A stretch of DNA of 44,551 nt from sequence record MW331437.1. The stretch is one strand, 5' to 3'. Source of the stretch: Escherichia phage phiWAO78-1. The notes under the pieces were generated by a model. That model was not told the origin of the DNA, made no database searches, and saw only the letters and a program-made list of their open reading frames with translations. Positions 4,196 through 39,034 of the stretch are shown in pieces. Position numbers and translations under genes: made by a program. How positions within the stretch are numbered: the stretch's first letter is position 1; every line of letters begins with the position of its first letter.

Positions 4196-4228
4196 TGAAT
4201 AGTACCCTATTATATTGGGGTCTGCAAA
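4196..4228 (-). promoter_or_regulatory. Class-1 conserved promoter-like element, copy A (TTGCAG-N17-TACTAT with AATAG-N4-CTATT dyad)
   Basis: 33-bp element shared with copies at 6082, 15681, 37611, 39002; about 35 nt upstream of the minus-strand ATG at 4164. Confidence 0.6.
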
Positions 4229-4271
4229 TATTATTTTTATGCGTTACACTGGCGATACCACAGGAGGGCAT

Positions 4272-5315
4272 ATGAGCTTACTTACATCCCTAATCAGCCA
4301 CCAGATATGGCTGCAACGCACCGCATCCGGCGAAGTGAAAGACCTTGCACCATTTCTTCAGGAAATGCGGGACGAAATCAAACGGCAGGTCCTGTTATTC
4401 GGTGACGACGGGCGAAGCACTGCGCGACTGAATAAACTGTTACGCGACCTTGAAGAAGCACTGGCAGGACTTACCGGTGACTGGCAAACAAAGCTGACAG
4501 AAGACCTTAAGGAACTGGCGGCATATGAAGCAGAGTGGAACGTAAAAACGCTAACGGCTAGCGTTAACGCGGAATTTGTTACACCTACCGCCGAACAGGT
4601 GTGGGCCGCTGCCGAGTTTCAACCGCTCTCATTGAGCGACAAGCCTGTCGATTTCACTAAGTTGATGTCCGGTTGGGGTGAAGCCGAAGTCGCTCGCCTT
4701 GTAACAGGCGTTAAGATGGGTTTCGTACAAGGTCAGACGACACGGCAGATTGTTAAGAATGTCGTAGGCGCGGGCGGGCTGGCTGACATCTCCGAGCGAA
4801 ACGCCGCTACAGTAATACGTACTGCGCTATCGCACGTGTCCAACGAAGCCCGCAACGAGACGTACAGGCAAAACGACGACATCATCGAGAAGTACGAATG
4901 GGTGTCAACGCTGGACAGTCGTACCAGTACGATTTGCAGAGCCAGAGACGGAATGACGTGGGAAATTGGTATGGGGCCGATGCCCCCCGCCCATCCGAAC
5001 TGTCGATCGTGCACAGCCCCGGTAATTAGCTCGGAGTTCGACTTCCTCGATAAAGGCGCGAAACGTGCAGCTAAGGGTGCGGAAGGTGGTACCCAGGTGA
5101 GCGCGGACACCGCCTATTATGAGTTCCTTAAACAACAACCGGCATGGTTTCAGGACCAGGCACTAGGGCCGGTTCGCGGTAAGATTTTCCGCAACAGCGG
5201 TATATCGCCGGAAGAGTTTCGCGTAATATCTGTAGATGGTTTCGGGAATCCGCTCACGCTTAAGCAGATGGCGGAACTCGATAAACGTGTCGCTGATTAT
5301 CTGAAAGGGGAATAA
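4272..5315 (+). CDS. Head morphogenesis protein (phage Mu F / SPP1 gp7-like minor head protein)
   Basis: Region TLDSRTSTICRARDG...PPAHPNCRSCT resembles the conserved C-terminal signature of this family; position after portal; start at ATG 4272 with GGAGGG SD (ORF open from 4215). Confidence 0.7.
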   Translation: MSLLTSLISHQIWLQRTASGEVKDLAPFLQEMRDEIKRQVLLFGDDGRSTARLNKLLRDLEEALAGLTGDWQTKLTEDLKELAAYEAEWNVKTLTASVNAEFVTPTAEQVWAAAEFQPLSLSDKPVDFTKLMSGWGEAEVARLVTGVKMGFVQGQTTRQIVKNVVGAGGLADISERNAATVIRTALSHVSNEARNETYRQNDDIIEKYEWVSTLDSRTSTICRARDGMTWEIGMGPMPPAHPNCRSCTAPVISSEFDFLDKGAKRAAKGAEGGTQVSADTAYYEFLKQQPAWFQDQALGPVRGKIFRNSGISPEEFRVISVDGFGNPLTLKQMAELDKRVADYLKGE

Positions 5316-5776
5316 TGATGGGCTTTTTCAAAGTAACCGATGTACCGTCGCGTCGTGTTGTCCAGTACGCCCGCGTGTCTGGCTCCGGTGAGAACGTTGT
5401 GTTTATTGAAGATGAAAGTGTACTTGGTACACCGGTAGACGATATGCCGTTTGCGGATAAGACCGGTATCGCGCTACCAGCGGCTGGTATGCTTTATGAG
5501 ATTCCGTATCTGGCTGATGCTGGCGACGTGTACTTCTCTGTGCAACCGAAAGACACTGAACTGGCTGACGGCAGCGCAACCATCACTGTCGAAGTTAAGG
5601 CGGGCAAAGCGCCATACGCGCTTACCTGGTACAAAGACGGCAAGGAAGTGGTAAACGCCCCGGAAGAGGCTTTGTCTCTGACGGTTAATGTAGTCGGTGA
5701 ATACTTCGTTAAAGTTACTGATGCTGATGGCGTAGAGGCAGTTAGCAAAGCGGCGAAGGTCACTAAACCGGAATAA
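5315..5776 (+). CDS. Ig-like domain-containing structural protein (putative)
   Basis: C-terminal motif YALTWYKDGKEV...GEYFVKVTD resembles immunoglobulin-like domains; start overlaps stop of upstream gene (TAATGATG). Confidence 0.45.
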   Translation: MMGFFKVTDVPSRRVVQYARVSGSGENVVFIEDESVLGTPVDDMPFADKTGIALPAAGMLYEIPYLADAGDVYFSVQPKDTELADGSATITVEVKAGKAPYALTWYKDGKEVVNAPEEALSLTVNVVGEYFVKVTDADGVEAVSKAAKVTKPE

Positions 5777-5777
5777 A

Positions 5778-5805
5778 CTGAGGCCCCGAAAGGGGCCTCA
5801 GTTTT
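5778..5805. terminator. Bidirectional rho-independent terminator (CTGAGGCCCC-GAAA-GGGGCCTCAG)
   Basis: 10-bp perfect GC-rich stem with T-runs on both strands, between convergent genes ending at 5776 and 5804. Confidence 0.75.
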
Positions 5806-6055
5806 AATACCCAGTCTCTTGGGTTAAGTTAATCTCTTTATTCCAGACGTTTCGGTCATACTTTTCACGAATCTGGCGCATACTTCTGCCGACCGCGGCG
5901 GATAGAGACGTATCCCCATCTTCTTGCGCGTCCAATTGAATCCGCCGAAGCCCAATATACGCCGAAATATCGCCGCGTAATTCGGCCTGTTCATACTCTT
6001 TTTTAAGAAAAGAACCAAGGTCCTGTACACGATGTTTTGCTGGTTTCGTAATCAT
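5804..6055 (-). CDS. Hypothetical protein (accessory cassette B)
   Basis: 83 aa ORF; ATG 6055 with GAGGAGAG SD about 25 nt downstream of conserved promoter element B. Confidence 0.45.
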   Translation of the reverse strand: MITKPAKHRVQDLGSFLKKEYEQAELRGDISAYIGLRRIQLDAQEDGDTSLSAAVGRSMRQIREKYDRNVWNKEINLTQETGY

Positions 6056-6081
6056 TTCTTCTCTCCTCTTGTTGGTGTGAA

Positions 6082-6114
6082 TGAATAGTACCCTATTATA
6101 TTGGGGTGTGCAAA
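6082..6114 (-). promoter_or_regulatory. Class-1 conserved promoter-like element, copy B
   Basis: TTTGCACACCCCAATATAATAGGGTACTATTCA on the minus strand; the best match to the family consensus. Confidence 0.6.
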
Positions 6115-6179
6115 CTATTTGTTTACGTATTCCAGTTATTCAACTGATTTGTAAATGATGGAATAAACTATTCGAATAG

Positions 6180-6208
6180 TTGACTTTTCACTAAAAATGT
6201 GCTAAGCT
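6180..6208 (+). promoter_or_regulatory. Candidate sigma70 promoter (TTGACT-N17-TAAGCT) preceded by palindrome CTATTCGAATAG
   Basis: Good -35 with 17-nt spacing and a weak -10; palindrome 6168-6179 abuts the -35. Confidence 0.3.
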
Positions 6209-6214
6209 CCACCT

Positions 6215-6412
6215 GAGCTTGTGAAGTATGAACAAGCGACCGCGGCGCGGGCAGGTAACGGAGCGGGACGTAAGTCCTGAGTGTAGTTACGCTGACGCGT
6301 TCGGAAGGGCCGTACTCTATTGCTTGTGTAAAAAGTAACTGGTTTACTGAGATTACGCCGTTTCTATGTTTAAATGATAAGGCCTAGCGCCCCGCTTTAC
6401 GGCGGGGCTTTA
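6215..6412 (+). ncRNA. Candidate small non-coding RNA or leader transcript (about 200 nt)
   Basis: Promoter-like element at 6180-6208 and intrinsic terminator at 6389-6415 bracket a region with no ORF of 60 aa or more (only a 36-codon basic ORF from 6228 lacking a clear SD). Confidence 0.25.
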
Positions 6413-6415
6413 CTT
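6389..6415 (+). terminator. Rho-independent terminator (GCCCCGC-loop-GCGGGGC + TTTACTT)
   Basis: 7-bp GC stem followed by T-rich tract, 18 nt upstream of the spanin start. Confidence 0.6.
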
Positions 6416-6432
6416 ATCGAGAAAGGAGAAAC

Positions 6433-6819: not shown

Positions 6820-6928
6820 CGACGCTGACGAGGATTTAGCTATCGACGTTCAGAATGCCGAATGTGCACGGCAACTGAGACTGAAAGTGTTCATGTTGCA
6901 GGATTACGTGAGGAATATTCTGGAATAG
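6665..6928 (+). CDS. o-spanin (Rz1-like outer-membrane lipoprotein), overlapping the i-spanin gene in another frame
   Basis: Lipoprotein signal MKSLSTLKRLAAACALLTLSAC with lipobox LSAC; Pro-rich mature part; GTG start with GAGGT SD 8 nt upstream; begins inside 6433-6819 and extends past it. Confidence 0.6.
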   Translation: MKSLSTLKRLAAACALLTLSACGSSPAPSQTPIPSPDTTMMQPPCKLAPPSSDADEDLAIDVQNAECARQLRLKVFMLQDYVRNILE

Positions 6929-7010
6929 TTGCCTTGCATGTTGGAATAATTTATTCTTGACATGTAAATCCGGGCGGCCCGGGTTCCAACGTCCAGGGGA
7001 CATACTGACT

Positions 7011-7712: not shown

Positions 7713-7714
7713 TA

Positions 7715-8764
7715 ATGGCAATTACCACTATCGGCGATATCGTAACTGGCAACATCCCGGTCCTGGCGTCTTATATGACCGAGGACCCGGTGGAAAAAAC
7801 CGCGTTCTTCCAGTCCGGTATTCTGACCCCGACTCCGTACGCCGCTGAGATTGCTCGCGGTCCGTCCAACGTCGCTAATATTCCTTTCTGGAAAGCGATT
7901 GATACTTCTATTGAGCCTAACTACTCGAACGATGTGTATCAGGATATCGCCACCCCGCGTAATGTGCAAACCGGCGAGATGATGGCCCGTGTTGCGTACA
8001 TGAACGAAGGTTTCGGCCAGGCGGATTTGACTGTCGAACTGACCAGCCAGAACCCGCTGCAATCCGTAGCGTCCCGTCTGGATAACTTCTGGCAACGTCA
8101 GGCACAACGCCGTCTGATTGCTACCGCGCTCGGTCTGTACAACGACAACGTAGCCGCTACCGATGCTTACCACGAGAAGGATGACATGGTAGTGGACGTG
8201 TCGGCTACTTTGGGCTTCGACGCAGGTGCGTTCATCGACGCCACCCAGACTATGGGTGATGCTCTGATGGGTAATGGCGGTGAAGTGCTGGGCGCTATCG
8301 CGATGCACAGCTTCGTTTATGCGCAGGCACGTAAGCAGCAGCTTATTGACTTCATCAAAGACGCTGACAACGACACCCTGTTTGCCACCTACCAGGGCTA
8401 CCGTGTGATTGTCGACGACAGCATGACCGTAGTCGGTACCGGCGGCAGCCGCAAGTTCATCTCCATCATCTTCGGCAACGGCGCTATTGGTTACGGAGAA
8501 GGCAACCCATCCAACCCGCTGGAATACGAGCGTGAAGCGTCTCGCGGTAACGGTGGTGGCGTTGAAACCCTGTGGACCCGTAAGACCTGGTTGCTGCATC
8601 CGCTGGGCTACAGCTTCACCAGCACGGTAATCACCGGCAACGGCACCGAGACTACCCCGCGCTCTGCTTCATGGCAGGACCTGGCGAACGCCTCCAACTG
8701 GAACCGCGTTGTTGACCGTAAGCACGTACCAATCGCCTTCCTGGTAACTGGTGTAGGGTCTTAA
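7715..8764 (+). CDS. Major capsid protein
   Basis: 349 aa ORF with GAGGAAA SD following scaffold and followed by a strong terminator; position and size typical. Confidence 0.75.
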   Translation: MAITTIGDIVTGNIPVLASYMTEDPVEKTAFFQSGILTPTPYAAEIARGPSNVANIPFWKAIDTSIEPNYSNDVYQDIATPRNVQTGEMMARVAYMNEGFGQADLTVELTSQNPLQSVASRLDNFWQRQAQRRLIATALGLYNDNVAATDAYHEKDDMVVDVSATLGFDAGAFIDATQTMGDALMGNGGEVLGAIAMHSFVYAQARKQQLIDFIKDADNDTLFATYQGYRVIVDDSMTVVGTGGSRKFISIIFGNGAIGYGEGNPSNPLEYEREASRGNGGGVETLWTRKTWLLHPLGYSFTSTVITGNGTETTPRSASWQDLANASNWNRVVDRKHVPIAFLVTGVGS

Positions 8765-10295: not shown

Positions 10296-10896
10296 AACAG
10301 AGATGTTCGCCCTTATCGGGACAAATCTCGCAGATAATACAACTGGCGCTATAACGCCTGAGTTGTTGCGCGAGGTAAACACACAGTTAGCGGACTCCAT
10401 GCTTTACGCTGCGTCAGGCGTGAAAGAGGTTGAAGTTCTCCGTGCCGCGGCAACCGTGATACAAGCGCCTACCGCAGTAGATACAGCATTGCAGTTAACT
10501 TTTGGCTCCGCTCAGGGCAGCGTGTCAGACCCGGTAATGCTTAATGCTGCGGGGCTGGTTACGTTCAACACTGCGGGTAACTATGCCGTTCGCATCAAGT
10601 TACAGGCCGGGCGCACTGGGGCAAGCGGCACGTCTATCCTGTTATCGCGTATTCTTATCAACGGTGCTCAGTATGGCTCACCCGCCGCTACGAAACTGGT
10701 AAGCGCGGATACCACAATCCCGATTGAATCTCGTGTCGTTATTAGCCCAACAGCAGGCCAGACGTTTGCCGTTCAGATTATGCGAGATAGCGCCGGAAGC
10801 GACTTCGGCGGTGTATATCCGCAAGCGGCTACCGTAACCGCATGGGGCACAGCACCGTCTGCACTACTGGTTATTTCGAGACTGGAGGCCGCGTAA
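10282..10896 (+). CDS. Hypothetical structural (neck) protein
   Basis: 204 aa ORF in the collinear late operon, overlapping neighbours. Confidence 0.4.
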   Translation: MAKTKTEMFALIGTNLADNTTGAITPELLREVNTQLADSMLYAASGVKEVEVLRAAATVIQAPTAVDTALQLTFGSAQGSVSDPVMLNAAGLVTFNTAGNYAVRIKLQAGRTGASGTSILLSRILINGAQYGSPAATKLVSADTTIPIESRVVISPTAGQTFAVQIMRDSAGSDFGGVYPQAATVTAWGTAPSALLVISRLEAA

Positions 10897-12060: not shown

Positions 12061-13229
12061 ATATGGCTACAACTCCTTTTAAGGGCGCGAATACCGCGCA
12101 ATTCTATGTGGCGGAAACTACCCCGGGCGTAACACCTACTAACCCGGTCTGGTCGCCATTGCGTAACACTGGCGGTGTTCCAGCGGTAACCCGCGATGCG
12201 CTGACTTCCAACGAACTCGACGGCAGCCGAGAAACTACATCCATCCGCACCGGTAACAAACAGGTTAGCGGGGAGTACGCCATCGAACTTAGCTCACGTA
12301 GCCAGGATGATTTCCTTGCGGGTGCTATGACTTCTACGTGGCAGGATGGGGTAGAGATTACGGGTGCCGAAATTACGGTCGCCCCAGCAGGTAAAACATT
12401 CACCCGCGCTGCCGGTAGCTTCATTACTGACGGTGTAGAAGTTGGCGACCTGATTGCGTTCACCGACTTAACCGGCGACAACGCAAAACCGTTTATCGTT
12501 ACCGCTGTTTCCGACCTTGTAGTTACGGGGGCGGGCATTCAGCACACGCTGACAGCAGAGACTGTAACCACCGACGCTAAAACTGGCGATAAACTGGAAA
12601 CCGGTAACGCGTGTAAGACGTTCTCCATCCTGACATGGTTCAAAGGCCAGTGCGGCAACCCAGACGCGTACATGTTGACCAAAGGCGTGGAAATCTCCGG
12701 TTTCACCATTGAACAGGCCGTAAACGCGATGGTGACAGGCAGCTTCCCGTTCATCGGTCTAAGTCAGGAAATTCTTTCCGAACCGCCGGCAGGTTCCGAC
12801 TTCTCTCGGGTCACATTCACTGACGAGCCGTTCTCATCTGTAGATGTGTCTGTTTTCGACGGTTCTACGCCGTTGCGTTGCGATACTCTGACCATCACCA
12901 ACGACAACAGCGCATCCGCGCAGTTCGAACTTGGCAACAGTAGCGTTGCGTTCGTGGAACGTGGCCGCGCGGCTAACACCTTCTCCATCTCCGGGAAGCT
13001 GTACGACATGGCGATGATTCAGAAGTTTATCGACGAGCAGCAGGTAGAGATTAACTCTATTCTGGCGGGGGTAAACGGGGCTATGTCTTTCAGTTTGAAA
13101 CGTGCAGAGCTTACGGCGGTTACACCAGAGATTGGCGGACCTGAGTCAATCACTCAGTCCATTGAAGGCCAGGCTACTGGCAACCAGTACCAGTCGTCTA
13201 TTGTCATCCAGCGTATCACCTACGCATAA
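12057..13229 (+). CDS. Major tail protein (putative)
   Basis: 390 aa Thr/Gly/Ala-rich ORF, last gene before a bidirectional terminator and upstream of the chaperone/tape-measure genes. Confidence 0.55.
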   Translation: MNMATTPFKGANTAQFYVAETTPGVTPTNPVWSPLRNTGGVPAVTRDALTSNELDGSRETTSIRTGNKQVSGEYAIELSSRSQDDFLAGAMTSTWQDGVEITGAEITVAPAGKTFTRAAGSFITDGVEVGDLIAFTDLTGDNAKPFIVTAVSDLVVTGAGIQHTLTAETVTTDAKTGDKLETGNACKTFSILTWFKGQCGNPDAYMLTKGVEISGFTIEQAVNAMVTGSFPFIGLSQEILSEPPAGSDFSRVTFTDEPFSSVDVSVFDGSTPLRCDTLTITNDNSASAQFELGNSSVAFVERGRAANTFSISGKLYDMAMIQKFIDEQQVEINSILAGVNGAMSFSLKRAELTAVTPEIGGPESITQSIEGQATGNQYQSSIVIQRITYA

Positions 13230-13233
13230 AACT

Positions 13234-13260
13234 AAGGCCCCTTTTGGGGCCTTTCTTCTT
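13234..13260. terminator. Bidirectional rho-independent terminator (AAGGCCCC-TTTT-GGGGCCTT)
   Basis: 8-bp stem with T-tracts on both strands between convergent genes ending at 13229 and 13259. Confidence 0.7.
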
Positions 13261-13813
13261 ACAAACCTAATTTTAAAGCAATGTCTATAACGTTCGATTT
13301 AACGTCACCCGGTATGATATATGTGTCGCAATCTTTTACACCATCAACATCATACAAGTAACCACGGCTATCCCCGTCAAACGTATAGCCGTCTCGGTGC
13401 AAGCGAACAATTCGCACTTCATGCCCAGCGGCGACGATAGGAGCCACTTCACTGGCGAACCCACCGTCGGACACTACAAAAACTTCGTCGCCGTCGGGCA
13501 AGTTTTCAGCAAGATACTTACCGAAATAATCATCGCCGAATACCGGTTTAATGAATTGTTCAGAGATAGCAATCATGAATTGACGGCGAGACAAACCATT
13601 AAGGAATCCTTCTGGCTTTTCTTTCCGCGCCCGGTCGTCGTAGCCGTCGAGAAACTCGTGGTAAGCATCCGGGCCTAACGCTGCCAGAGCGATATTGAAC
13701 ATTGGATTCTTGAAACTGGTAGTTCCTTTCGCAAAGCCCATTTCTACCAGTGCCATAGCAAGTGTGTCTTTCCCGCAACCCGCAGGGCCATTAAGAATAA
13801 TTACATTAGCCAT
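13259..13813 (-). CDS. P-loop nucleotide kinase, deoxynucleoside-monophosphate-kinase-like
   Basis: N-terminal Walker A LNGPAGCGKDT at residue 7; size and GKDT loop resemble phage dNMP kinases (T4 gp1 type). Confidence 0.55.
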   Translation of the reverse strand: MANVIILNGPAGCGKDTLAMALVEMGFAKGTTSFKNPMFNIALAALGPDAYHEFLDGYDDRARKEKPEGFLNGLSRRQFMIAISEQFIKPVFGDDYFGKYLAENLPDGDEVFVVSDGGFASEVAPIVAAGHEVRIVRLHRDGYTFDGDSRGYLYDVDGVKDCDTYIIPGDVKSNVIDIALKLGL

Positions 13814-14298
13814 TATTTATCGCTCCCATGTGATTTTAAGCGTGTAGAGTTCCCGTTACAGTCGTATTCAGTAACCGCGTGCGTCGTGATTCCTAAGCCA
13901 CGGAAATGCTTAATCACCGCTGGCGAGTCGTCGAATGCACACAAGATTCTTTCCAGTCCGATAGCGCGCAACACCTCTTCTTTAATTACGATGTCTTTTC
14001 TGTTGTCGTGTTTGCTACGCATGATTAACTGATAAAATTCGACGCGGTGGCGCTGCAGCCACATTCTGGTTTCTTTTTCTGCATCATCACTGCGACCGGT
14101 TAAAATAATAACGGCGTATCGCCGATTAAGGGCGTTACATAGTTCGATATTATCTCTAATTGGCTCATCGTCTTTGCACGCCATGTTAAATGGCCTCCAA
14201 GCCCATGTTTCGCCGTAGTTATCTTTTGGCAGCAGGTGTAAACGATGTGTACCATCTGCTAATGTCCCGTCTAAATCGAAAATTACAATATCTTTCAT
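13813..14298 (-). CDS. HAD-superfamily phosphatase/hydrolase
   Basis: N-terminal motif I IFDLDGTLADG (DxDGT nucleophile motif) typical of HAD phosphatases. Confidence 0.6.
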   Translation of the reverse strand: MKDIVIFDLDGTLADGTHRLHLLPKDNYGETWAWRPFNMACKDDEPIRDNIELCNALNRRYAVIILTGRSDDAEKETRMWLQRHRVEFYQLIMRSKHDNRKDIVIKEEVLRAIGLERILCAFDDSPAVIKHFRGLGITTHAVTEYDCNGNSTRLKSHGSDK

Positions 14299-15317
14299 CC
14301 CAGCATCTCCGGTGAAATAGTTAAACGCGCAACCTCGCCATATTTGGCGCTATAAGTAATTACATTTGCGCTACGGCCCGACATCCATCCGCCGCGGGAG
14401 GCGTAGGCGTCTTTAGCCGCTAAGGTGCGGTGTTGCTCAACAATCATGTTACGGCTTTCTACAATCTTCTGATGGTGCAGGTGACCTACGTGTGCGTAGC
14501 TGTAGACGCTCTCGCCGAACGCTTTGCGGAACTTGGCAATCATAACTGGTTCGATAGCGTCGAATCGCGCCTTGTGTCCGTGGGTAAAGAACAGCGTCGT
14601 TTTGCCGTGCTGCACCATCTTGTAAACATCCGGCGACGTATCGACGAACACACGCGGCTCATTGTCGTACAGCGTACTGAACATCTCAGCCAACCAAATC
14701 ATACCCGATTCGTCGTGGTTCCCTTGCACGATAAGCAGTCGGACGTTTTTATGTTTAACGAGCGCCATATCAACAACACGGCGTACCATACGAATCATGT
14801 AGCGGACAAGTTTCTGATAACGGGTGTCGGCGTCAAGAGCGTGACCGCTTGCAGGTGTAACGGCAACCAGACTATCGAAGTGCGCGAAGTCGCCTAGCAG
14901 GTTAATAACTCCGGTCCCAGCGTCCGGCGCTTTCTGAAACGCCTCGTCGAACCATCGGGAGAACAGGCCCTCCGCGATTTTCATATCCCAGTCGTCGCCG
15001 CTCTCGTCGGCCCAGGCCAGCATACCGAGATGGAAATCAGACACAGTGTAAAGATTGAGTAGTTTATCGTCGCGTTTGGCGCGAATGGTTTTAACAGGTG
15101 CAACGGGGGTAATCTCTGACTTCATGCCTTCAATTACGGCTTTCATCAACTCGACCTGACGTTCGGCGTCGGTTTCTGTCTTAACCCATTGCAACTTAGT
15201 ATTGCCGAGTTCGTCCACCAGAGACGACGTCCCCTTAATCTTGTAGCCGTCCGGGACAAGGTGACTAACGTCGCGACCGTGACCTACGCCTTTCTTGGCC
15301 AGCTCGCTTTCGGACAC
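14295..15317 (-). CDS. Calcineurin-like metallophosphoesterase
   Basis: Ordered motifs D-x-H (VSDFHLG), GD (LLGDFAHFD), GNH[DE] (VQGNHDE), FTHGH and GHLHH; GTG start; roughly 80-aa N-terminal extension before the first motif. Confidence 0.7.
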   Translation of the reverse strand: MSESELAKKGVGHGRDVSHLVPDGYKIKGTSSLVDELGNTKLQWVKTETDAERQVELMKAVIEGMKSEITPVAPVKTIRAKRDDKLLNLYTVSDFHLGMLAWADESGDDWDMKIAEGLFSRWFDEAFQKAPDAGTGVINLLGDFAHFDSLVAVTPASGHALDADTRYQKLVRYMIRMVRRVVDMALVKHKNVRLLIVQGNHDESGMIWLAEMFSTLYDNEPRVFVDTSPDVYKMVQHGKTTLFFTHGHKARFDAIEPVMIAKFRKAFGESVYSYAHVGHLHHQKIVESRNMIVEQHRTLAAKDAYASRGGWMSGRSANVITYSAKYGEVARLTISPEMLG

Positions 15318-15423
15318 GAATTACGCGGTCTGAGATGCCGTATTTACGGGCTATATCGATAGTTTTAACTCCGGCGTTCAATTCTTCCTGTAATTGTTCG
15401 TCGGTTATTTTCTTCTGGGCCAT
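15265..15423 (-). CDS. Small HTH-containing protein (52 aa), overlapping the 5' end of the metallophosphoesterase ORF
   Basis: ATG 15423 with GAGGAAG SD; sequence TIDIARKYGISDRVIRVRKRA looks like a helix-turn-helix; different frame from 14295-15317. Confidence 0.3.
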   Translation of the reverse strand: MAQKKITDEQLQEELNAGVKTIDIARKYGISDRVIRVRKRAGQERRRSRSRR

Positions 15424-15461
15424 GCTTACTTCCTCGTGTTTAGGATTTGTCCTATACTAGC

Positions 15462-15653
15462 TCACTTCTCGTTAACATTCGAGTTGCATGCCCAGATTAA
15501 AATAAAGACCCACGGCAGCAGAATCCAACCAAGAAACAGATTGGCCATGAATATCGCCAACTTCGCTTTATGGTTGCGGAAATACGCAACCAGGAAAGGT
15601 GCGAAATAAGCGAGCAGCGCAAATAGAATTAGGGAAACCGGTAAACTTGACAT
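15462..15653 (-). CDS. Superinfection-immunity-like small membrane protein (Imm family-like)
   Basis: 63 aa, two hydrophobic segments; motif YFRNHKAKLAIFMANLFLGWILLPW resembles the superinfection immunity protein family; first gene behind promoter element C. Confidence 0.55.
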   Translation of the reverse strand: MSSLPVSLILFALLAYFAPFLVAYFRNHKAKLAIFMANLFLGWILLPWVFILIWACNSNVNEK

Positions 15654-15680: not shown

Positions 15681-15713
15681 TGAATAGTACCCTATTATAT
15701 TGGGGCGCGCAAG
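15681..15713 (-). promoter_or_regulatory. Class-1 conserved promoter-like element, copy C
   Basis: CTTGCGCGCCCCAATATAATAGGGTACTATTCA on the minus strand, about 30 nt upstream of ATG 15653. Confidence 0.6.
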
Positions 15714-24833: not shown

Positions 24834-24841
24834 ATAAAACT

Positions 24842-24867
24842 AAGGCCCCTTTCGGGGCCTTTTCTCT
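24842..24867. terminator. Bidirectional rho-independent terminator (AAGGCCCC-TTTC-GGGGCCTT)
   Basis: 8-bp stem plus T-run between the convergent late and replication modules. Confidence 0.7.
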
Positions 24868-27620: not shown

Positions 27621-27808
27621 TTCGCCACCAGCACCAATTCTTTACGCCCGAACGCTGTAACGTTACCGGTTACATCTTCAATAACCAGTTTACCGTTCGA
27701 CTCGACGTATACCGTATCAACGGCAACAGGCCGACGGGTCTTAACGTTGAAAATCATGTCGTCCGGTACGAGGTCACGTGCTGGTTTGCGGTCGTATTCG
27801 TGTTTCAT
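27617..27808 (-). CDS. Hypothetical small protein
   Basis: 63 aa ORF with GGAATTGAG SD behind promoter H; start/stop overlap with the methyltransferase gene. Confidence 0.4.
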   Translation of the reverse strand: MKHEYDRKPARDLVPDDMIFNVKTRRPVAVDTVYVESNGKLVIEDVTGNVTAFGRKELVLVAK

Positions 27809-27838: not shown

Positions 27839-28138
27839 TTAACTATAATAGTTCGCTATTAGGTCGTCAACTTGTTTAAACGATCCGACGACAAAAACAT
27901 TTGCGCCACGTTTACGCATACGCTCATGTTCTCGCAGCTGGTGCGGGTCAGGCTTCGTGTTTTCGTCTTTCTTAACCTCGACGAACCAGATGATGCCGCC
28001 GGGGAGGATTACTAGCAGGTCAGGAGCGCCGGAGCGCCCCTCGAAGGAAAGTTTACGAACGAGGCCACCAATGGCCTCGAATCGCTCTTTTGCGTATTTC
28101 TGTACGCGCCCCTCTTTAGTCATGAGCGCAGAACCCAT
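27839..28138 (-). CDS. VRR-NUC domain nuclease
   Basis: 99 aa with PD-(D/E)XK-type core (APDLLVILPGG...FVEVKKDEN...HQ) characteristic of VRR-NUC proteins. Confidence 0.65.
   Translation of the reverse strand: MGSALMTKEGRVQKYAKERFEAIGGLVRKLSFEGRSGAPDLLVILPGGIIWFVEVKKDENTKPDPHQLREHERMRKRGANVFVVGSFKQVDDLIANYYS
27842..27870 (-). promoter_or_regulatory. Class-2 promoter H: TTGACG-N17-TATAGT with AATAG-N4-CTATT dyad in the spacer
   Basis: Near-consensus sigma70 hexamers at optimal spacing, read on the minus strand; about 30 nt upstream of ATG 27808. Confidence 0.6.
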
Positions 28139-30847: not shown

Positions 30848-30863
30848 TATTTTCGACCCTTAG

Positions 30864-30887
30864 TAAAAAGGCCCAATGAAGGGCCTT
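30864..30887 (-). terminator. Rho-independent terminator on the minus strand (AAGGCCC-TTCATT-GGGCCTT + TTT)
   Basis: Stem-loop about 20 nt downstream of the minus-strand gene ending at 30907. Confidence 0.55.
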
Positions 30888-30906
30888 AGTTAAATTGATT
30901 CAGATA

Positions 30907-31533
30907 TTAGCGGCGACGACGTTCGCGGCGTGGTGCTTCATCTTCTTCGTCGTCTTCGAGGTCATCGACGCTCGCAGCAACTTTAGAACCACCGAACGCT
31001 TTACCTTCACCGACGTATTTAATCGCCAGCAGGTTAACACCGAGAACTTTGTATTTCTGGCTGAACCAGATTTCAACGCTTACGTTAGCGACGCAGCCGC
31101 TGTAAACCTGTTCACCTTCAATCTGTTCGCCGTCTACGTTGAAATCCTGTTCTACCTGAGTCTCGCCTTTTTTAGATGTTACGATCAGTGGCTGTTTCTG
31201 TGCCTTCGCTTTGAAGTAGAAGCCTTCCGGGAAATCTTCAAACGGATTGTCGCGCTCGGCAATGTCTTTAATCGCACATTTATCCATGTGCTTTCCTTCG
31301 CCGTAGTTTGACTTCATCCACTTCTCGGCGGCGGCAGCACCTAATGCTTCTTCAACTACAGCGTAAACAGTGTCGTAGAGCGCATCGATTTGCGCATGGT
31401 CAGACGGCAGGATAATAGTCGCGCTGTACTGACCCTTAGTGATTGAGCCATCGTCGTTTTCACGGTCTTTTTCGCGTTCGAATACGTTAACCCATGCAGT
31501 GTTTACTTTACGCAGATTCAGTTTAATACCCAT
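30907..31533 (-). CDS. Single-stranded DNA-binding protein-like (putative)
   Basis: 208 aa with strongly acidic C-terminal tail (DDLEDDEEDEA) as in many SSBs; adjacent to Cas4-like nuclease and DNA polymerase; family assignment by context and memory. Confidence 0.45.
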   Translation of the reverse strand: MGIKLNLRKVNTAWVNVFEREKDRENDDGSITKGQYSATIILPSDHAQIDALYDTVYAVVEEALGAAAAEKWMKSNYGEGKHMDKCAIKDIAERDNPFEDFPEGFYFKAKAQKQPLIVTSKKGETQVEQDFNVDGEQIEGEQVYSGCVANVSVEIWFSQKYKVLGVNLLAIKYVGEGKAFGGSKVAASVDDLEDDEEDEAPRRERRRR

Positions 31534-31591: not shown

Positions 31592-31620
31592 AATATAATA
31601 GCTAACTATTCAGGTGTCAA
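31592..31620 (-). promoter_or_regulatory. Class-2 promoter F: TTGACA-N17-TATATT with AATAG-N4-CTATT dyad in the spacer
   Basis: Consensus -35 and near-consensus -10 at 17-nt spacing on the minus strand upstream of 30907-31533. Confidence 0.6.
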
Positions 31621-31828: not shown

Positions 31829-33060
31829 TCAGGACGTTTGTCGTCTGCCGTTGCAACACATGGCACCCCTGGCTTGCGTGTTATAAATGGTTCAAGCGCC
31901 GCCATCTCATCTGCCGAAAGAACTTTTGCTGCCTCCGTAGGGGACATCAATACCTCTTTTTTGAGAATGTCGCCGTGTGATACTTTAATAGCATCGGCAT
32001 CTTTCCACGCACGATTACCCGGGCGACCCTCAACCAGTTTGTACCCCAGCACTTTCTTACCGGAATGCAATGCAGCAGCCATAGCTTTCTCAACCTTGTC
32101 GATGTGCTGGCGCAACAACGGCAACTTCTCATACTCAGCTACGAGTTGCTCCAGCGTAAGTTCCAACGCAAAGTCGTCTTCCAGTTCTTCCGCCAGTACC
32201 GCGTTAACGGTTTTTGTACGCGCGGCGCACTGTTCGGAGAACCGACACCACTGGCAACCATCTACCGACGGCCTGAAGTCTGACGTTTTCAGGTTCTTCT
32301 TGCCACGGGAATAGGCATCAAGGGCCAACAGTGCACGTTTCTGTGCGAACTTAGCAAACAGTTCAAGGCCTTCAACCGAGATGTCCCACTCCGACGCGCC
32401 ACCAGCATACGGCTGGAAGATTACCAGACGCACAACTGTGATGTTATAACGTCTCTTGAGTCTGCGATAAACACCGAGAGCATAGAGCATAAGCTGCTTG
32501 TTTTCTTTCGCTTCGACACGATGTCGTCCTGTTTTAAGGTCGGTGACATTGAGGATATGTTCGTCTGTGTTAGCCTTTTCAAGAACGGCAACAAGGTCGG
32601 CTGTTCCGAACGTCTCGACGCCTTCATACCCCGGATGCAATACCTCAGTAAGATTTACGCGCATTTCCAGCTTGGCGTAAGTAGCAACGTCTATAATCGC
32701 TTTGCAGTAGTCGGTGTACTTGCGCACCTGCTCAATCATGTCAGCCGTAATCAGTACCGCGCCTTTCATCGGGCTTATTAATGCCTTAATCTGGCCTTTA
32801 CCTTCATCCAGCACGTAAGCACCAACTTCACGCTCTAACGGCAACGCAGTGCCTTTGATGTACTGGTTTAGATGAATCTCGGCTATAGTGTGCATCGCTG
32901 TGCCTAATACCGCGGCTTTACCTGACGTGTTAGGAATATCTTTTTCACACGCCAGTGATGCCGCGCAACTTAGCCACTTCTTAGCACCTGACGGCGACAG
33001 CAGGGCGTGTACGTCGTTATTGCCGCCGCGTTCCTTTAAAATCATACCCTGTTCTCCCAC
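31795..33060 (-). CDS. PD-(D/E)XK nuclease, Cas4/RecB-like exonuclease (putative recombination exonuclease)
   Basis: 421 aa; N-terminal LSPSGAKKWLSC, and C-terminal Cys cluster CQWCRFSEQC typical of Cas4-like Fe-S nucleases. Confidence 0.65.
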   Translation of the reverse strand: MGEQGMILKERGGNNDVHALLSPSGAKKWLSCAASLACEKDIPNTSGKAAVLGTAMHTIAEIHLNQYIKGTALPLEREVGAYVLDEGKGQIKALISPMKGAVLITADMIEQVRKYTDYCKAIIDVATYAKLEMRVNLTEVLHPGYEGVETFGTADLVAVLEKANTDEHILNVTDLKTGRHRVEAKENKQLMLYALGVYRRLKRRYNITVVRLVIFQPYAGGASEWDISVEGLELFAKFAQKRALLALDAYSRGKKNLKTSDFRPSVDGCQWCRFSEQCAARTKTVNAVLAEELEDDFALELTLEQLVAEYEKLPLLRQHIDKVEKAMAAALHSGKKVLGYKLVEGRPGNRAWKDADAIKVSHGDILKKEVLMSPTEAAKVLSADEMAALEPFITRKPGVPCVATADDKRPEWNQVTEEDLE

Positions 33061-33596: not shown

Positions 33597-34118
33597 TTAT
33601 TCTTCTTCGAAATACTTGTTCTTGATTGCTGTCAGGCGTTCCAGATATTCAGCCAGGTCTTCGTCTTTAATCGCGGCAATCTTCATCTTCTTACCGGTGA
33701 ACTCTTCCAGCAGTTCATCGGAATCATCACACGCGGCGTCGCTCGGACCTTCGTTAATCGCGTCGTCGATAGCCTGAATCTGGTCACGCAGAGACTTATA
33801 GTCTACTTCTTCTTTCTCTTCTTCCGGCTCTGGAGCAGGCTCCTCTACTTTAGCTTTACGCGGCTTGCGTTTCGGCTTCTCTTCTTCTGCCGGTTTAGTG
33901 TCAACGATGTCTTCGCCCTCGACTGGGAGTTCTTTCGCTTTCTCGACTTCTTCAAGTGCTTTAGCCAGTTCTTTTTTAACTGTTTCTACCCCCGTGACCG
34001 CGACGTCAACGGTTAATTCACCTACTGATTTGCCGTTTTGCGGTTTCACGCTATTCGCAGCAATCAGTTCATGCGCAACTACGAAACGTTCCAGTAATAC
34101 TAAGAATTTCTCTAACAT
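33597..34118 (-). CDS. Highly acidic early protein (hypothetical; possible DNA mimic)
   Basis: 173 aa, very Glu/Asp-rich with one basic patch; first gene downstream of strong promoter G. Confidence 0.45.
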   Translation of the reverse strand: MLEKFLVLLERFVVAHELIAANSVKPQNGKSVGELTVDVAVTGVETVKKELAKALEEVEKAKELPVEGEDIVDTKPAEEEKPKRKPRKAKVEEPAPEPEEEKEEVDYKSLRDQIQAIDDAINEGPSDAACDDSDELLEEFTGKKMKIAAIKDEDLAEYLERLTAIKNKYFEEE

Positions 34119-34149: not shown

Positions 34150-34179
34150 ACTATAATAGCTAACTATTCAGGATGTCAA
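34150..34179 (-). promoter_or_regulatory. Class-2 promoter G: TTGACA-N18-TATAGT with AATAG-N4-CTATT dyad in the spacer
   Basis: Consensus -35 and near-consensus -10 on the minus strand; divergent from the XRE-type regulator gene. Confidence 0.6.
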
Positions 34180-34243
34180 CGGGCTTTTCTAAAATAATTA
34201 ATATGGTACTATTCACATATCAACTGACTAAGGAGTAACTGAC

Positions 34244-34459
34244 ATGCAACCATCTGAACTAGGCATCCGTGTAGAGCAACGCCGTAAAGAACTCGGCATC
34301 TCCCAGCGCCGTCTGGCAGTCCTGACCGGCGTTTCCCAGGGCGCAATTAACCAGCTGGCACTTGGGGTAACTCAGGACGTCCGCCCGGCGACGCTGTTTA
34401 AACTGGCGGAAGTGCTGCAAGTAGACGCGAAGTGGCTGGCGCTAGGTGAAGGGGCTTAA
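34244..34459 (+). CDS. XRE-family helix-turn-helix transcriptional regulator (Cro/CI-like)
   Basis: 71 aa; ISQRRLAVLTGVSQGAINQL is a classic XRE-type HTH; AAGGAG SD; divergently transcribed from the early operon. Confidence 0.7.
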   Translation: MQPSELGIRVEQRRKELGISQRRLAVLTGVSQGAINQLALGVTQDVRPATLFKLAEVLQVDAKWLALGEGA

Positions 34460-34476
34460 TGCCCCTTTCTTTTTAC

Positions 34477-36717: not shown

Positions 36718-36775
36718 ATTGTATATTCCTTCAGCAAGTAATTTAGCCTCGGCGCTCTAACGCTGGGGCTTTCTT

Positions 36776-37009
36776 TTATTCCAGGTCTTCTAAAGTAGCG
36801 GCCATTCCGCGAACTTCAGCAACAGCGCTATATCTCCCGCCAACATTTTTCACGACACCGGATTTAACCAGTACCTTTAACGACCCTTCAATAATGGCTG
36901 AACTATAGTACTTAAAATAACTACGGCGCAAGTCGATAACGCTGCATGACCCTTTTTTACGTGTTAATGAAACGACTGCCGTAAACACTCGTGATTGAAA
37001 CTCAGTCAT
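36776..37009 (-). CDS. Hypothetical protein
   Basis: 77 aa ORF overlapping the upstream HTH gene. Confidence 0.4.
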   Translation of the reverse strand: MTEFQSRVFTAVVSLTRKKGSCSVIDLRRSYFKYYSSAIIEGSLKVLVKSGVVKNVGGRYSAVAEVRGMAATLEDLE

Positions 37010-37176
37010 TTCACGTTCTCCTTAATCCACGCTTCCACTTTCTCTCGGTCAAACGTACCAGGCTGGCGGCGACCCATAATGCGGATACAACAATCCGGGA
37101 ACTTCCCACTCTTTAACCAGTTATTCAGCGTGCGACGAGTAACCCCGATACGCTCGGCTACCTCATTCTGCGTCAT
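37006..37176 (-). CDS. AlpA/excisionase-like HTH DNA-binding protein
   Basis: MTQNEVAERIGVTRRTLNNWLKSGKFP matches the AlpA-type HTH pattern; start at ATG 37176 with GAGGG SD (ORF open from 37209). Confidence 0.5.
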   Translation of the reverse strand: MTQNEVAERIGVTRRTLNNWLKSGKFPDCCIRIMGRRQPGTFDREKVEAWIKENVK

Positions 37177-37208
37177 TCTCAAACCCTCATTATCAGTTAA
37201 CGGAGGCA

Positions 37209-37237
37209 AGTATACATTGCGAATAGTGGGAAATCAA
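37209..37237 (-). promoter_or_regulatory. Candidate sigma70 promoter TTGATT-N17-TATACT for the AlpA-like gene
   Basis: Hexamers at optimal spacing on the minus strand; spacer contains a GAATAG half-site. Confidence 0.4.
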
Positions 37238-37517
37238 ACATAATTGCACCTATTGACATTATGAAAATCTTCGTTTAAGGTGCTTCTATATCTTAGTTAC
37301 TTTGATTCTTGTTCACCTTGTAAAACCCGCCGAAAACGAGCGCTCAACGCGAAGTGTTAGGCGGCAGTTTACTGAACATGAGAATTATCGTAACTTTCCT
37401 TCCTAAGTATCTCCGGTTGCCCTGGGCAAGCTCTATTCTCATCGGCAGCATACCTCTTAAGTATCTGATTTTCTTAATGTGCCGTAGATTCGCAACCGTA
37501 AAAATGTAACGATTATC

Positions 37518-37541
37518 GGGCAGGCTTAATGCCTGCCCTTT
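37518..37541 (+). terminator. Terminator-like hairpin (GGGCAGGC-TTAAT-GCCTGCCC + TTT)
   Basis: 8-bp perfect stem in a roughly 450-bp region without convincing ORFs. Confidence 0.35.
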
Positions 37542-37610
37542 AGTTACCAAGTAATAAGAATAAAGGCACGACCCTCCCTAAAGAATCACAACGGCAACGT
37601 AACTATTCTC

Positions 37611-37643
37611 TTGCACACCCCAACATAATAGGATACTATTCAC
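37611..37643 (+). promoter_or_regulatory. Class-1 conserved promoter-like element, copy D
   Basis: TTGCACACCCCAACATAATAGGATACTATTCAC on the plus strand about 30 nt upstream of the first gene of the rightward small-ORF array. Confidence 0.6.
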
Positions 37644-37673
37644 TTATCGGAACGATACAGAGGAGTGAGGGTT

Positions 37674-37865
37674 ATGTTTAAGAAGGGTCAGTTGGTTAAA
37701 TGCGCCGACGGTAAACACGGTGTGATTGAATTAAAATCTGCTTTATTTCCGGGAGAGTACGTAGTTACTGTGCAAAAGGTGAGAGGAGTAAATTCGGTGG
37801 TATACGTAGCGGAAGAGAATTTAAAACTAATCGGCAACAATTTTAAATTCAAAGGGGAGAAGTGA
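37674..37865 (+). CDS. Hypothetical small protein
   Basis: ATG 37674 with GAGGAGTGAGGG SD (ORF open from GTG 37665). Confidence 0.4.
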   Translation: MFKKGQLVKCADGKHGVIELKSALFPGEYVVTVQKVRGVNSVVYVAEENLKLIGNNFKFKGEK

Positions 37866-38104
37866 TGCAAATCATAATTACAGATAACACAGTTTCCTAC
37901 GAAAAAGATGACGACGATACTTTGGAGAGCATAGGCGTAAATATCGGTGATGTTTTCGATGTCCTTGGTATCGTATCAGGCAGCTGGTGGATTAAGGTCG
38001 GTCGCTACAAAGTTCCGGTAAGCAAGGCAGAAGCGAAAATATTCTCAACGGCATCGAATCATGATGCTCGTGCCGACGACTCTGAGGGAGGTTGCCGTGA
38101 ATAA
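37862..38104 (+). CDS. Hypothetical small protein
   Basis: 80 aa; ATGA overlap with upstream gene. Confidence 0.4.
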   Translation: MMQIIITDNTVSYEKDDDDTLESIGVNIGDVFDVLGIVSGSWWIKVGRYKVPVSKAEAKIFSTASNHDARADDSEGGCRE

Positions 38105-38164
38105 TTACCTGTTTATTTTAATTGTCAGCGCCGTTTGTGTGGTGCACGCGTTGTGGGGGCTGGT

Positions 38165-38356
38165 ATGAGAATTCGTATAACCAAGATAAATGGCTTTCTA
38201 CCACTGCCTTACGGTGACTATCCTCTTTACCACTTTGGGGTATGCGTTGGGCAGGAGTTCGATACTATCGGCGAAAACGAGTATGGCTTTGTCGTAGAAC
38301 ATGACGGAGAGCCGCTATTCATTAGACGCAGTGAATGTGAAGTTCTGGAGGACTAA
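38165..38356 (+). CDS. Hypothetical small protein
   Basis: ATG 38165 (ORF open from 38135). Confidence 0.35.
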   Translation: MRIRITKINGFLPLPYGDYPLYHFGVCVGQEFDTIGENEYGFVVEHDGEPLFIRRSECEVLED

Positions 38357-38359
38357 GTT

Positions 38360-38503
38360 ATGAGAGAAGCATTTGAACGGTGGGCTGTCGTCGAGGGTCT
38401 GCCGGTTAACAAGGGTTCGAAGAAAGAGTACCTGAACGTTAAGACGCGTCTCGCGTGGCGGGCGTGGAAAGCTGGTGTTCGAACTGCGATGAGTAAGAGG
38501 TGA
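38360..38503 (+). CDS. Hypothetical small basic protein (47 aa)
   Basis: GGAGGA SD before ATG 38360; below ORF-track cutoff. Confidence 0.3.
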   Translation: MREAFERWAVVEGLPVNKGSKKEYLNVKTRLAWRAWKAGVRTAMSKR

Positions 38504-38506
38504 GAT

Positions 38507-38701
38507 GTGTGTGAGTGGGTTAAGTGTAGTGAGCGGATGCCAGATGACTTTGAAGATGTACTGGTTTCAGATGGGGGTAACGTTGAGGTGATGTGGTGGG
38601 ATTGCGATGGCTTCTGGGATTGTTGGGCACCGCGTAACTCAAATATCAGTAGTGACGATGTGACTCACTGGATGTCGTTACCTGAGCCGCCGGAAGTGTG
38701 A
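38507..38701 (+). CDS. Small Trp/Cys-rich protein, possibly DUF551-like
   Basis: MPDDFEDVLV...VTHWMSLPEPP pattern resembles DUF551 phage proteins (from memory); GTG start. Confidence 0.35.
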   Translation: MCEWVKCSERMPDDFEDVLVSDGGNVEVMWWDCDGFWDCWAPRNSNISSDDVTHWMSLPEPPEV

Positions 38702-38825
38702 TGTTCAATAGTTTGTGATTTTACTGAGTGACTTACGCTGCTACACAGCAGCGTATCATTTTTCTCATTTTTGTTCTATTTCACCAAACGCAACCATCGA
38801 AGCGACTATTGCAGGAGATGCAACA

Positions 38826-38996
38826 ATGAAACTGAATGACATCGTAACCTGGACCGGTAGAAACGGAGAAAAGCGATTCGGGCTTATTGTTGCATCAAAC
38901 GGCAACAAGTACCGTGTTATGCGATGGCGTCAGTGGGCACGACGCCAGAGGTACTACTGGATTCGCAGTGAACGTTTATCTTTAAAACACCAATAA
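38826..38996 (+). CDS. Hypothetical small protein (56 aa)
   Basis: ATG 38826 with AGGAGA SD (ORF open from 38715). Confidence 0.35.
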   Translation: MKLNDIVTWTGRNGEKRFGLIVASNGNKYRVMRWRQWARRQRYYWIRSERLSLKHQ

Positions 38997-39001
38997 AATT
39001 T

Positions 39002-39034
39002 CTTGCCACTGGGATAGAATAGGCTACTATTCAT
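39002..39034 (+). promoter_or_regulatory. Class-1 conserved promoter-like element, copy E (diverged)
   Basis: CTTGCCACTGGGATAGAATAGGCTACTATTCAT keeps TTGCC, the AATAG-N4-CTATT dyad and TACTATTCA; 27 nt upstream of ATG 39062. Confidence 0.45.

Follow-up and report, generated by a model that had tools for sequence, protein, structure and literature searches.

The 434 Cro protein, the 434 repressor and P22 C2 bind dyads of 14 to 18 bp whose centre is not contacted, and protein p4 of phage phi29, which binds at upstream positions, contacts the polymerase and thereby works as both repressor and activator. Phages of the genera Kagunavirus and Jerseyvirus are among the most frequently isolated phages of Escherichia coli and Salmonella and have been widely put forward for use in therapy and food safety; to our knowledge their gene regulation is essentially unstudied. 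PHIRE searches listed the repeat tgAATAGTa-ccTATTat-T in Kagunavirus fBC-Eco01, where it was ascribed to a phage-encoded RNA polymerase (PMC9825357), and TAATAGTACCCTATTATGTT in the Jersey-like phage SGP-C, where it was termed a "phage-specific regulatory element" (PMC8790156). Both papers list the repeat without analysis, and no experimental study of it was found in the literature. Here we analyze this repeat in the 44,551-nucleotide sequence of Escherichia phage phiWAO78-1 (MW331437.1, hereafter the window), where it is the 14-bp inverted repeat AATAG-N4-CTATT (AATAGNNNNCTATT, hereafter the dyad). The repeat itself has already been reported; what is new is its resolution into sigma-70 promoters and a separable symmetric operator, with the promoter classes, the clade limits and the candidate readers. 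The comparisons that follow support a separate symmetric recognition element common to both classes of promoter that carry the exact dyad.

The window is a Kagunavirus sequence (Guernseyvirinae; K1G/ST20-like) with about 90% identity to ST20, JSSK01 and the K1G/K1ind group, which are virulent siphoviruses. Annotated proteins of JSSK01 were projected onto it as a gene map (91.3% coding, 8.7% intergenic). The comparison set consisted of the window, JSSK01, SETP13 (a Jerseyvirus) and 47 IMG/VR loci, with 333 dyad sites carrying at most one mismatch. Both strands were scanned, and expected counts were taken from 100 dinucleotide-preserving shuffles.

Exactly eight dyads were found in the window, against 0.04 expected and a maximum of one per shuffle, starting at positions 4198, 6084, 15683, 27847, 31597, 34155, 37627 and 39018. 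A preliminary description of this DNA had listed eight sites and no others; the eight matches are real and the exhaustive scan returned the same eight only, the last five coordinates being corrected here by 1-2 nt. It had also placed all of them between genes. Seven of the eight are fully intergenic; the dyad at 27847 falls within the seven final codons of VRR-NUC and, though coding, still sits at a gene boundary. The probability that at least seven of eight sites fall within 8.7% of the sequence is about 3e-7 by a binomial estimate. The alternative named in that description, a dyad equally common in coding DNA, is thus not what is observed. Inverted AATAG/CTATT pairs at any other spacing from N0 to N11 were absent from the window, and the fixed N4 spacing points to recognition by a symmetric dimer. 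Four further sites in the window differ from the dyad by one mismatch: those at 6175, 34200 and 42092 are intergenic and lie on promoters, and the fourth, at 21878, falls in a gene. Most of the 13 sites with two mismatches also fall in genes, and this set is therefore regarded as background.

All the dyads lie inside sigma-70-type promoters, with -35 and -10 hexamers 16-18 bp apart and facing the downstream gene, and each is embedded in a longer conserved block. In the five class-1 promoters, whose consensus is TTGCAC-N17-TACTAT-TCA, the match to sigma-70 hexamers is weak (about 7/12), and the dyad spans approximately -19 to -6 as judged from the hexamer assignment, so that CTATT forms most of the -10. 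A strong Shine-Dalgarno sequence and a start codon follow 25-35 nt further downstream. These promoters serve small accessory genes, a superinfection-immunity/phosphoesterase operon and small rightward genes:

4198-4211, minus strand: class-1 dyad AATAGTACCCTATT; -35 TTGCAG at 4227-4222, 17-bp spacer, -10 TACTAT at 4204-4199; drives the small accessory genes 3970-4164 and 3719-3958.
6084-6097, minus strand: class-1 dyad; -35 TTGCAC at 6113-6108, -10 TACTAT at 6090-6085; drives the gene for an 83-amino-acid (aa) protein at 5804-6055.
15683-15696, minus strand: class-1 dyad; -35 TTGCGC at 15712-15707, -10 TACTAT at 15689-15684; drives the operon from 15653 down to 13259.
37627-37640, plus strand: class-1 dyad; -35 TTGCAC at 37611-37616, 17-bp spacer, -10 TACTAT at 37634-37639; drives small genes from 37674.
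39018-39031, plus strand: class-1 dyad; -35 TTGCCA at 39003-39008, 16-bp spacer, -10 TACTAT at 39025-39030; drives genes from 39114 towards the lysis cassette.

The three class-2 promoters, TTGAC(A/G)-N17/18-TATAGT or TATATT, are the three highest-scoring sigma-70 sites of the right-hand 20 kb (10-11 of 12 positions matched) and face the leftward replication genes. By the same hexamer assignment their dyad fills the spacer, from about -25 to -12, and the -10 starts with the last T of the dyad:

27847-27860, minus strand: class-2 dyad AATAGTTCGCTATT; TTGACG at 27870-27865, 17 bp, TATAGT at 27847-27842 (10/12); drives a hypothetical gene at 27617-27808 and the methyltransferase, SNF2 helicase and primase genes.
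31597-31610, minus strand: class-2 dyad; TTGACA at 31620-31615, 17 bp, TATATT at 31597-31592 (11/12); drives DUF2815 (30907-31533) and DNA polymerase.
34155-34168, minus strand: class-2 dyad; TTGACA at 34179-34174, 18 bp, TATAGT at 34155-34150 (11/12); drives 33597-34118 and the nuclease operon, divergently from the gene of an XRE-family protein.

The strong promoter and putative operator at 27839-27870 are encoded within the last codons of the VRR-NUC gene (27839-28138), with an identical sequence in SETP13. For the class-2 sites, a promoter on the opposite (plus) strand built on the TATAAT found there was ruled out, as manual reading found no usable -35.

The imperfect copies fall on two further kinds of promoter, that of the XRE gene and a third class in which the dyad lies over the -35:

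34200-34213, plus strand: degenerate dyad AATATGGTACTATT, one mismatch; on the XRE gene's own promoter, -10 TACTAT at 34207-34212.
42092-42105, plus strand: class-3 imperfect dyad ACTAG-TTGA-CTATT over -35 TTGACT at 42097-42102, 17 bp, TATATT; upstream of a block of small genes, a NinH-like gene and terminase.
6175-6188, plus strand: class-3 imperfect dyad AATAG-TTGA-CTTTT over -35 TTGACT at 6180-6185; preceded by the everted half-sites CTATTCGAATAG at 6168-6179.
6924-6937, plus strand: class-3-like site; AATAG abutting the -35-like TTGCCT at 6929-6934 (TAGTTGCCT, 6926-6934), with only the left half-site intact; upstream of the scaffold gene at 7011.

The everted pair at 6168-6179 is the only one in the window and touches TTGACT at 6180-6185, as the preliminary description had said. 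The GGAATAG/GGAATAA repeats that it had noted upstream of the scaffold gene are present as well (GGAATAT at 6912, GGAATAG at 6922, GGAATAA at 6943), but the relevant feature there is the abutment of AATAG on the -35-like hexamer. The string TAGTTG(A/C)CT occurs at 6177, 6926 and 42094 (three matches against 0.63 expected), in all cases on the plus strand and upstream of morphogenesis or packaging genes, and the 6175 promoter heads a conserved leader of about 200 nt upstream of the spanin-like, scaffold and capsid genes. At the packaging-gene promoter Kagunavirus has ACTAG-TTGA-CTATT and Jerseyvirus has AATAG-TTGA-CTAGT, that is, the same substitution at the symmetry-related position of opposite halves, which fits interchangeable half-sites read by a symmetric dimer. 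On the XRE promoter, the G-to-T change of the 34200 variant yields a TGn extended -10, and the same variant is found in nearly all Kagunavirus loci. The 34155 and 34200 dyads are 45 bp apart in Kagunavirus and 55 bp apart in Jerseyvirus (SETP13, L002 ~32370-32440); the extra helical turn hints that the face of the helix may be constrained.

The position of the dyad relative to the promoter is therefore variable. In class 1 it is separated from the -35 by 10 nt; the distance is 4-5 nt for class-2 promoters and 7 nt for one site in SETP13, with the -10 shifting along (TACTAT, TATAGT and TATTAT, respectively). These differing registers, together with the location over the -35 in class 3, exclude a single polymerase-recognition element. 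They bear directly on the proposal that the repeat is a promoter for a phage-encoded RNA polymerase or sigma factor and its symmetry incidental. The sites do lie at promoters, and the PHIRE motif has been called phage promoters (PMC9825357) or a phage-specific regulatory element (PMC8790156). However, all sites bear sigma-70-type hexamers at 16-18 bp, the annotations of JSSK01 and SETP13 list neither an RNA polymerase nor a sigma factor, and Pfam and PHROG scans of 39 small window proteins gave no polymerase or sigma gene. We find this proposal scarcely credible.

Sequence conservation separates the dyad from the promoter hexamers. In about 50 sequences of the genera Kagunavirus and Jerseyvirus the two half-sites hardly change, in contrast to the four central base pairs and to the linker that leads to the -35. 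Likewise, column by column, the 83 unique class-2 sequences from the two genera carry much information in the -35 and -10 hexamers and equally in AATAG and CTATT, but little in the 4-nt linker and the central N4. The upstream class-2 half-site falls where the sigma-70 holoenzyme has little sequence preference. The distribution of the dyad is also sharply limited: all 36 Kagunavirus-like and 11 Jerseyvirus-like IMG/VR loci have 2-6 exact dyads per stretch of at most 20 kb, SETP13 has six exact and two near-copies in orthologous places, and the 15683 site has orthologous copies in both JSSK01 and SETP13. Cornellvirus VSiA, phage STP-1, Hafnia phage TS33 and contigs L051-54 keep orthologous strong promoters with only the -10-proximal CTATT, e.g. 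TTGACA-CTGAATTATTAAACTAT-TATATT; the orthologue of the 31597 promoter in Cornellvirus and TS33 is one that is without the upstream half-site. No replacement genome-wide dyad was found in these dyad-less relatives. A local repeat, GCAACACG-N10-CGTGTTGC, brackets the leftward promoter between the XRE and helicase-primase genes in the Cornellvirus, STP-1 and TS33 lineages (L074 ~12290-12340, L075 ~10810-10860, L003 ~8500-8545) and may be a local operator of their XRE homologue. A lone exact dyad in the otherwise dyad-less lineage, L051:15697-15710, lies in a class-1-like promoter (TTGACG-N16-TACTAT) and is missing from the sister contigs L052-54; it is either a chance occurrence or an acquired cassette.

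Could the dyad have no separate function, being a product of duplicated promoter cassettes and the near-symmetry of -10-like sequence? The class-1 sites are clearly paralogous promoter, leader and Shine-Dalgarno cassettes, and CTATT beside the -10 is kept even in dyad-less relatives. On the other hand, promoters of class 1 and class 2 have little in common apart from the dyad, and within each class the N4 and the linkers have diverged while the half-sites have not, so this explanation appears highly improbable. For a role in a cruciform or hairpin the 5-bp stem is too short. Back-to-back -10 hexamers as the source of the symmetry were rejected, the opposite strand giving CCCTAT or AGCTAT, which are unusable as -10. 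Instead, the register shifts, the conservation of the half-sites, the dyad-less sister promoters and the symmetry-equivalent mismatch all support the suggestion of the preliminary description that the two promoter classes share candidate sites for one dimeric protein.

The genus-level comparison further shows a difference just outside the dyad. The outermost operator position is T..A in 22/22 unique Jerseyvirus sites, whereas Kagunavirus has C at +1 in 62/62 class-1 sites and G at -1 in 63/89 class-2 sites. Such a genus-specific flank would be hard to explain if the dyad were bound by a conserved transcription factor of the host Enterobacteriaceae that the phage exploits. Sites of the FNR type have a 5-N4-5 geometry with a sequence different from the dyad, and the OxyR/LysR-type site is ATAG-N7-CTAT, usually in tandem; the geometry of the dyad resembles the former and its ATAG/CTAT half-sites recall the latter. 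The dyad is also common to phages of E. coli, Salmonella and Raoultella. Only N4 spacing is seen, however, against the N7 of OxyR, and Cornellvirus, which infects Salmonella, keeps orthologous promoters without the dyad. A host factor is thus a very unlikely reader.

Three HTH proteins are recognisable in the window, an XRE protein, an HTH_17 protein and a NinH-like protein; no DNA-binding domain was recognisable in the other small proteins scanned. The NinH-like protein was ruled out as the dyad reader because it is also present in the dyad-less TS33 and Cornellvirus. Two candidates are left:

34244-34459, plus strand: candidate A, XRE/HTH_3 protein of 71 aa; the only gene on the plus strand within the leftward replication cluster; has a terminator of its own (34448-34468).
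37009-37209, minus strand: candidate B, HTH_17 protein (MerR/Xis-like winged HTH); probable start ATG at 37176 (56 aa); opens a leftward operon with helicase-primase.

Our preferred reading is that the dyad is the operator of a phage-encoded dimeric HTH regulator acting over sigma-70 promoters and that its most likely reader is the 71-aa XRE protein; from the sequences compared we hold this tentatively, at slightly under an even chance. The XRE protein matches HTH_3 at 1.1e-12, and its closest PDB matches are 434 Cro (7e-6), 434 repressor (1e-5) and P22 C2 (2e-3). Its gene is divergent from the perfect 34155 dyad, and its own promoter bears the conserved weakened one. The genus-specific flank of the operator is paralleled by the divergence of XRE (48% identity), whereas the HTH of the HTH_17 protein is almost invariant.

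Several observations weigh against this reading. The dyads are parts of promoters rather than separate operators, and in class 1 the right half-site doubles as most of the -10 hexamer, which partly explains CTATT by itself. The XRE identity between genera is the eighth lowest of 52 shared proteins (median 73%), yet the 10-bp dyad core is invariant; moreover, judging from the alignment, two of the three XRE positions aligned with base-contacting residues of 434 Cro would differ between genera. XRE homologues (36-45%) are found in relatives without the dyad. The sole Kagunavirus transcriptome, that of the close ST20 relative K1B4 (multiplicity of infection 100, sampled to 120 min with a 30-min latent period; PMC12645636), places XRE (_004) and helicase-primase in the middle class and HTH_17 (_008) in the early class as one of four early genes. 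The late class includes the immunity (_045), helicase/methyltransferase (_053/_054) and DNA polymerase (_057) genes (PMC12645636), all of which are served by dyad promoters. These classes do not look like a simple early shut-off, though they are coarse and mostly fall after the first lysis. Only the early class is trustworthy, and it speaks slightly for HTH_17, or for buffering instead of shut-off; a design of this kind is too coarse to tell the models apart. Locus L040, which has an XRE protein 53% identical and no dyad, was rejected as a counter-example because it is not comparable: its protein belongs to the CI/LexA-type repressors, has a long extension at its C-terminus and is encoded in other genomic surroundings.

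The same operator could instead be read by the HTH_17 protein, which would be made first from its dyad-free promoter and hold the dyad promoters down early, releasing them as its synthesis falls and genomes multiply. Its promoter, TTGATT-17-TATACT (37237-37209), is without a dyad in both genera. The distribution of the protein matches that of the dyad: tblastn searches found it in 442 phage records, all at least 78% identical and confined to Kagunavirus and Jerseyvirus, it is present in 44 IMG/VR loci, and tblastn gave no homologue in the partial loci of the dyad-less relatives, where XRE and NinH-like proteins are present. This match may, however, reflect one event, the exchange of a module of HTH_17, a 77-aa protein and helicase-primase in the dyad-less lineages. 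No lineage with the dyad and only one of XRE and HTH_17 was found by tblastn with either protein or in two IMG/VR scans. The HTH_17 protein is 85-91% identical between genera and its near-invariant HTH parallels the invariant dyad core, but the genus-specific flank has no counterpart in changes of its HTH. In K1B4 it is transcribed early and the dyad-driven genes peak later (PMC12645636). Its predicted fold has two helices, a wing and a third helix and is MerR/Xis/RacA-like, with modest model confidence (predicted local distance difference test, pLDDT, 67) and weak fold matches (E >0.03). The likeness of this model to the DNA-binding domain of RacA would suit the dyad, as the target of RacA is an inverted repeat of 14 bp; the remaining neighbours in fold, Xis and BldC, bind direct repeats as monomers or head-to-tail. 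At 56-67 aa the protein has no dimerisation element, while the strict N4 suggests a dimer defined by protein-protein contacts. On balance, HTH_17 is an unlikely reader, albeit one to be taken seriously; all other possibilities beyond XRE and HTH_17, the lack of a separate function included, are together rather improbable.

Among these is the use of the dyad as a loading site for a processive antiterminator of the Q or AlpA-binding type, with the polymerase then reading through terminators. The Q-binding and AlpA-binding elements sit between -35 and -10 (PMC9371919), like the class-2 dyads; HTH_17-type genes often precede primase-helicase genes, and the class-3 promoter at 6180 is followed by a leader of about 200 nt and a terminator before late genes. 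Yet AlpA of Pseudomonas aeruginosa is an eight-helix protein of which one molecule reads an asymmetric 6-bp element (PMC9371919), whereas the dyad is a perfect 14-bp repeat in several registers, over the -10 among them, with imperfect copies over the -35, and the candidate proteins have 56-71 aa. No Q-like or AlpA-like protein was recognisable in the domain scans, and several dyad promoters drive just one or two small genes. We give antitermination very little credence.

If the dyad is the operator of a dimeric repressor, with XRE as the most likely protein, a molecule bound within -25 to -6 would compete with RNA polymerase and turn the promoters down. Negative control is suggested by the class-2 promoters, which are near consensus and need no activator, and by the exclusion of polymerase expected from a protein bound there. 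The repressed set would comprise the replication genes, the small rightward genes and the accessory cassettes. The imperfect copies, at the three -35 sites and on the XRE promoter, would be weaker operators, escaping control or answering only to high levels of the regulator, and XRE, with a weakened dyad on its own promoter, would autoregulate. The comparisons show the enrichment of the dyad, its setting in promoters, the independent conservation of its two halves, its restriction to certain clades and its symmetry; protein binding, its negative sign, the identity of the reader and the graded affinity are what we infer from them. More speculatively, one operator in three registers and of graded quality (eight perfect copies and up to four imperfect ones), present on the majority of recognisable promoters, might be the main timing device of a virulent siphovirus without a polymerase or sigma factor of its own. 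A small repressor would buffer the early and replication promoters against rising copy number, promoters with weakened operators would dominate late, and accessory genes would join the programme through ready-made cassettes; the repressor could then be the 56-aa HTH_17 protein. We regard this broader scheme as doubtful.

Concerning the accessory genes, JSSK01 is without the leftward genes 3719-4164 and 5804-6055 and without their class-1 promoters (six exact dyads against eight), and the leader at 4198 closely resembles the leader of JSSK01's 37627-type promoter, indicating that cassettes of promoter, operator, leader and Shine-Dalgarno sequence travel with accessory genes. The window segments concerned are 3384-4271 and 5777-6113, each with its own class-1 dyad promoter and missing from JSSK01 (L001 6040-6120 and 7610-7700). 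The gap between the portal and minor-capsid genes of JSSK01 keeps a one-mismatch dyad, TATAGTATGCTATT. The leftward operon at 13259-15653 (minus strand), transcribed from the 15683 dyad promoter, is inserted among tail genes and encodes the following proteins, possibly a nucleic-acid end-repair set:

15462-15653, minus strand: superinfection-immunity protein (Imm_superinfect).
Remaining genes of the operon: calcineurin-like phosphoesterase, HAD/PNKP-type phosphatase and P-loop (AAA_18-like) protein.

Other non-coding units were noted beside these promoters, and no Rfam family matched anywhere in the window. At 6160-6432 (plus strand), the class-3 promoter TTGACT-N17-TAAGCT is followed by the leader of about 200 nt and an intrinsic terminator at 6389-6408, just before the spanin-like gene, in a layout that recalls lambda PR'-6S RNA-tR' or HK022 put. 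This unit is about 98% identical between Kagunavirus and Jerseyvirus, against 67% for the neighbouring protein and 73% for the median protein; the leader has a fold z-score of -1.9 and no Rfam match. A second, diverged copy (78-89%), consisting of the promoter and a leader of about 115-135 nt, is present in the early intergenic region of L004 (4311-4447), L016 (13491-13628) and about 30 other Kagunavirus loci; it is not in this window, whose equivalent place is 37240-37520. For nine distinct leader copies RNAalifold predicted 28 pairs, seven with compensatory double changes, so the leader may be a new structured phage RNA. In the position of that second copy the window has, at 37253-37545 (plus strand), a TTGACA-N17-TAAGGT promoter with CTATT overlapping the -35 and a strong terminator (37518-37538) about 250 nt on, with no convincing open reading frame between them. 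At 41975-42075 (plus strand) the strong promoter TTGACA-N17-GATACT is followed after about 40-60 nt by a GC hairpin and T8 terminator, directly upstream of the class-3 promoter at 42097; this arrangement might yield a very short RNA or work like an attenuator. A GGCCCC-loop-GGGGCC hairpin of about 34 nt occurs in four copies at the ends of gene blocks (5772-5805, 13226-13259, 24834-24867 and 30861-30896); these are shared, partly bidirectional predicted terminators where transcription units converge.

The reading of the repeat as promoters of a phage RNA polymerase thus appears mistaken and is replaced here by host-type promoters with a shared putative operator, two candidate regulators, and strong and weak sites. 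If true, this would offer a compact, portable promoter-operator pair for engineering these phages and a simple model of gene ordering in a virulent phage that encodes no polymerase. Operators of HTH repressors that overlap promoters are well known, and an element of this type is in itself not surprising. The 434 and P22 Cro/CI systems are alike in their small XRE-family HTH proteins, 14-bp dyads with a variable centre and operators that overlap the core promoter, as well as in the regulator gene, which is transcribed divergently from a promoter with an operator and whose own promoter has a weaker one. They differ in that the present phage is virulent, with no integrase or CI-type repressor annotated in the close relatives JSSK01 and SETP13 and no lysis-lysogeny switch. 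Moreover, single operators are dispersed here over 8-11 promoters in three registers, the only pair being 34155/34200, instead of the tripartite OL/OR clusters, and the candidate reader may not be XRE. The phi29 p4 system is similar in that the temporal programme would be shaped by one small phage protein working at several promoters of host type, but here the sites are inside the core promoter and no activation is indicated. With MerR-type regulation our phage shares the dyad between -35 and -10 in class 2 and, according to the fold prediction for HTH_17, a MerR-like winged HTH; its spacers, however, are of 16-18 bp rather than 19-20 bp, the position of the dyad is variable, and HTH_17 is without the coiled-coil and effector domains of that family.

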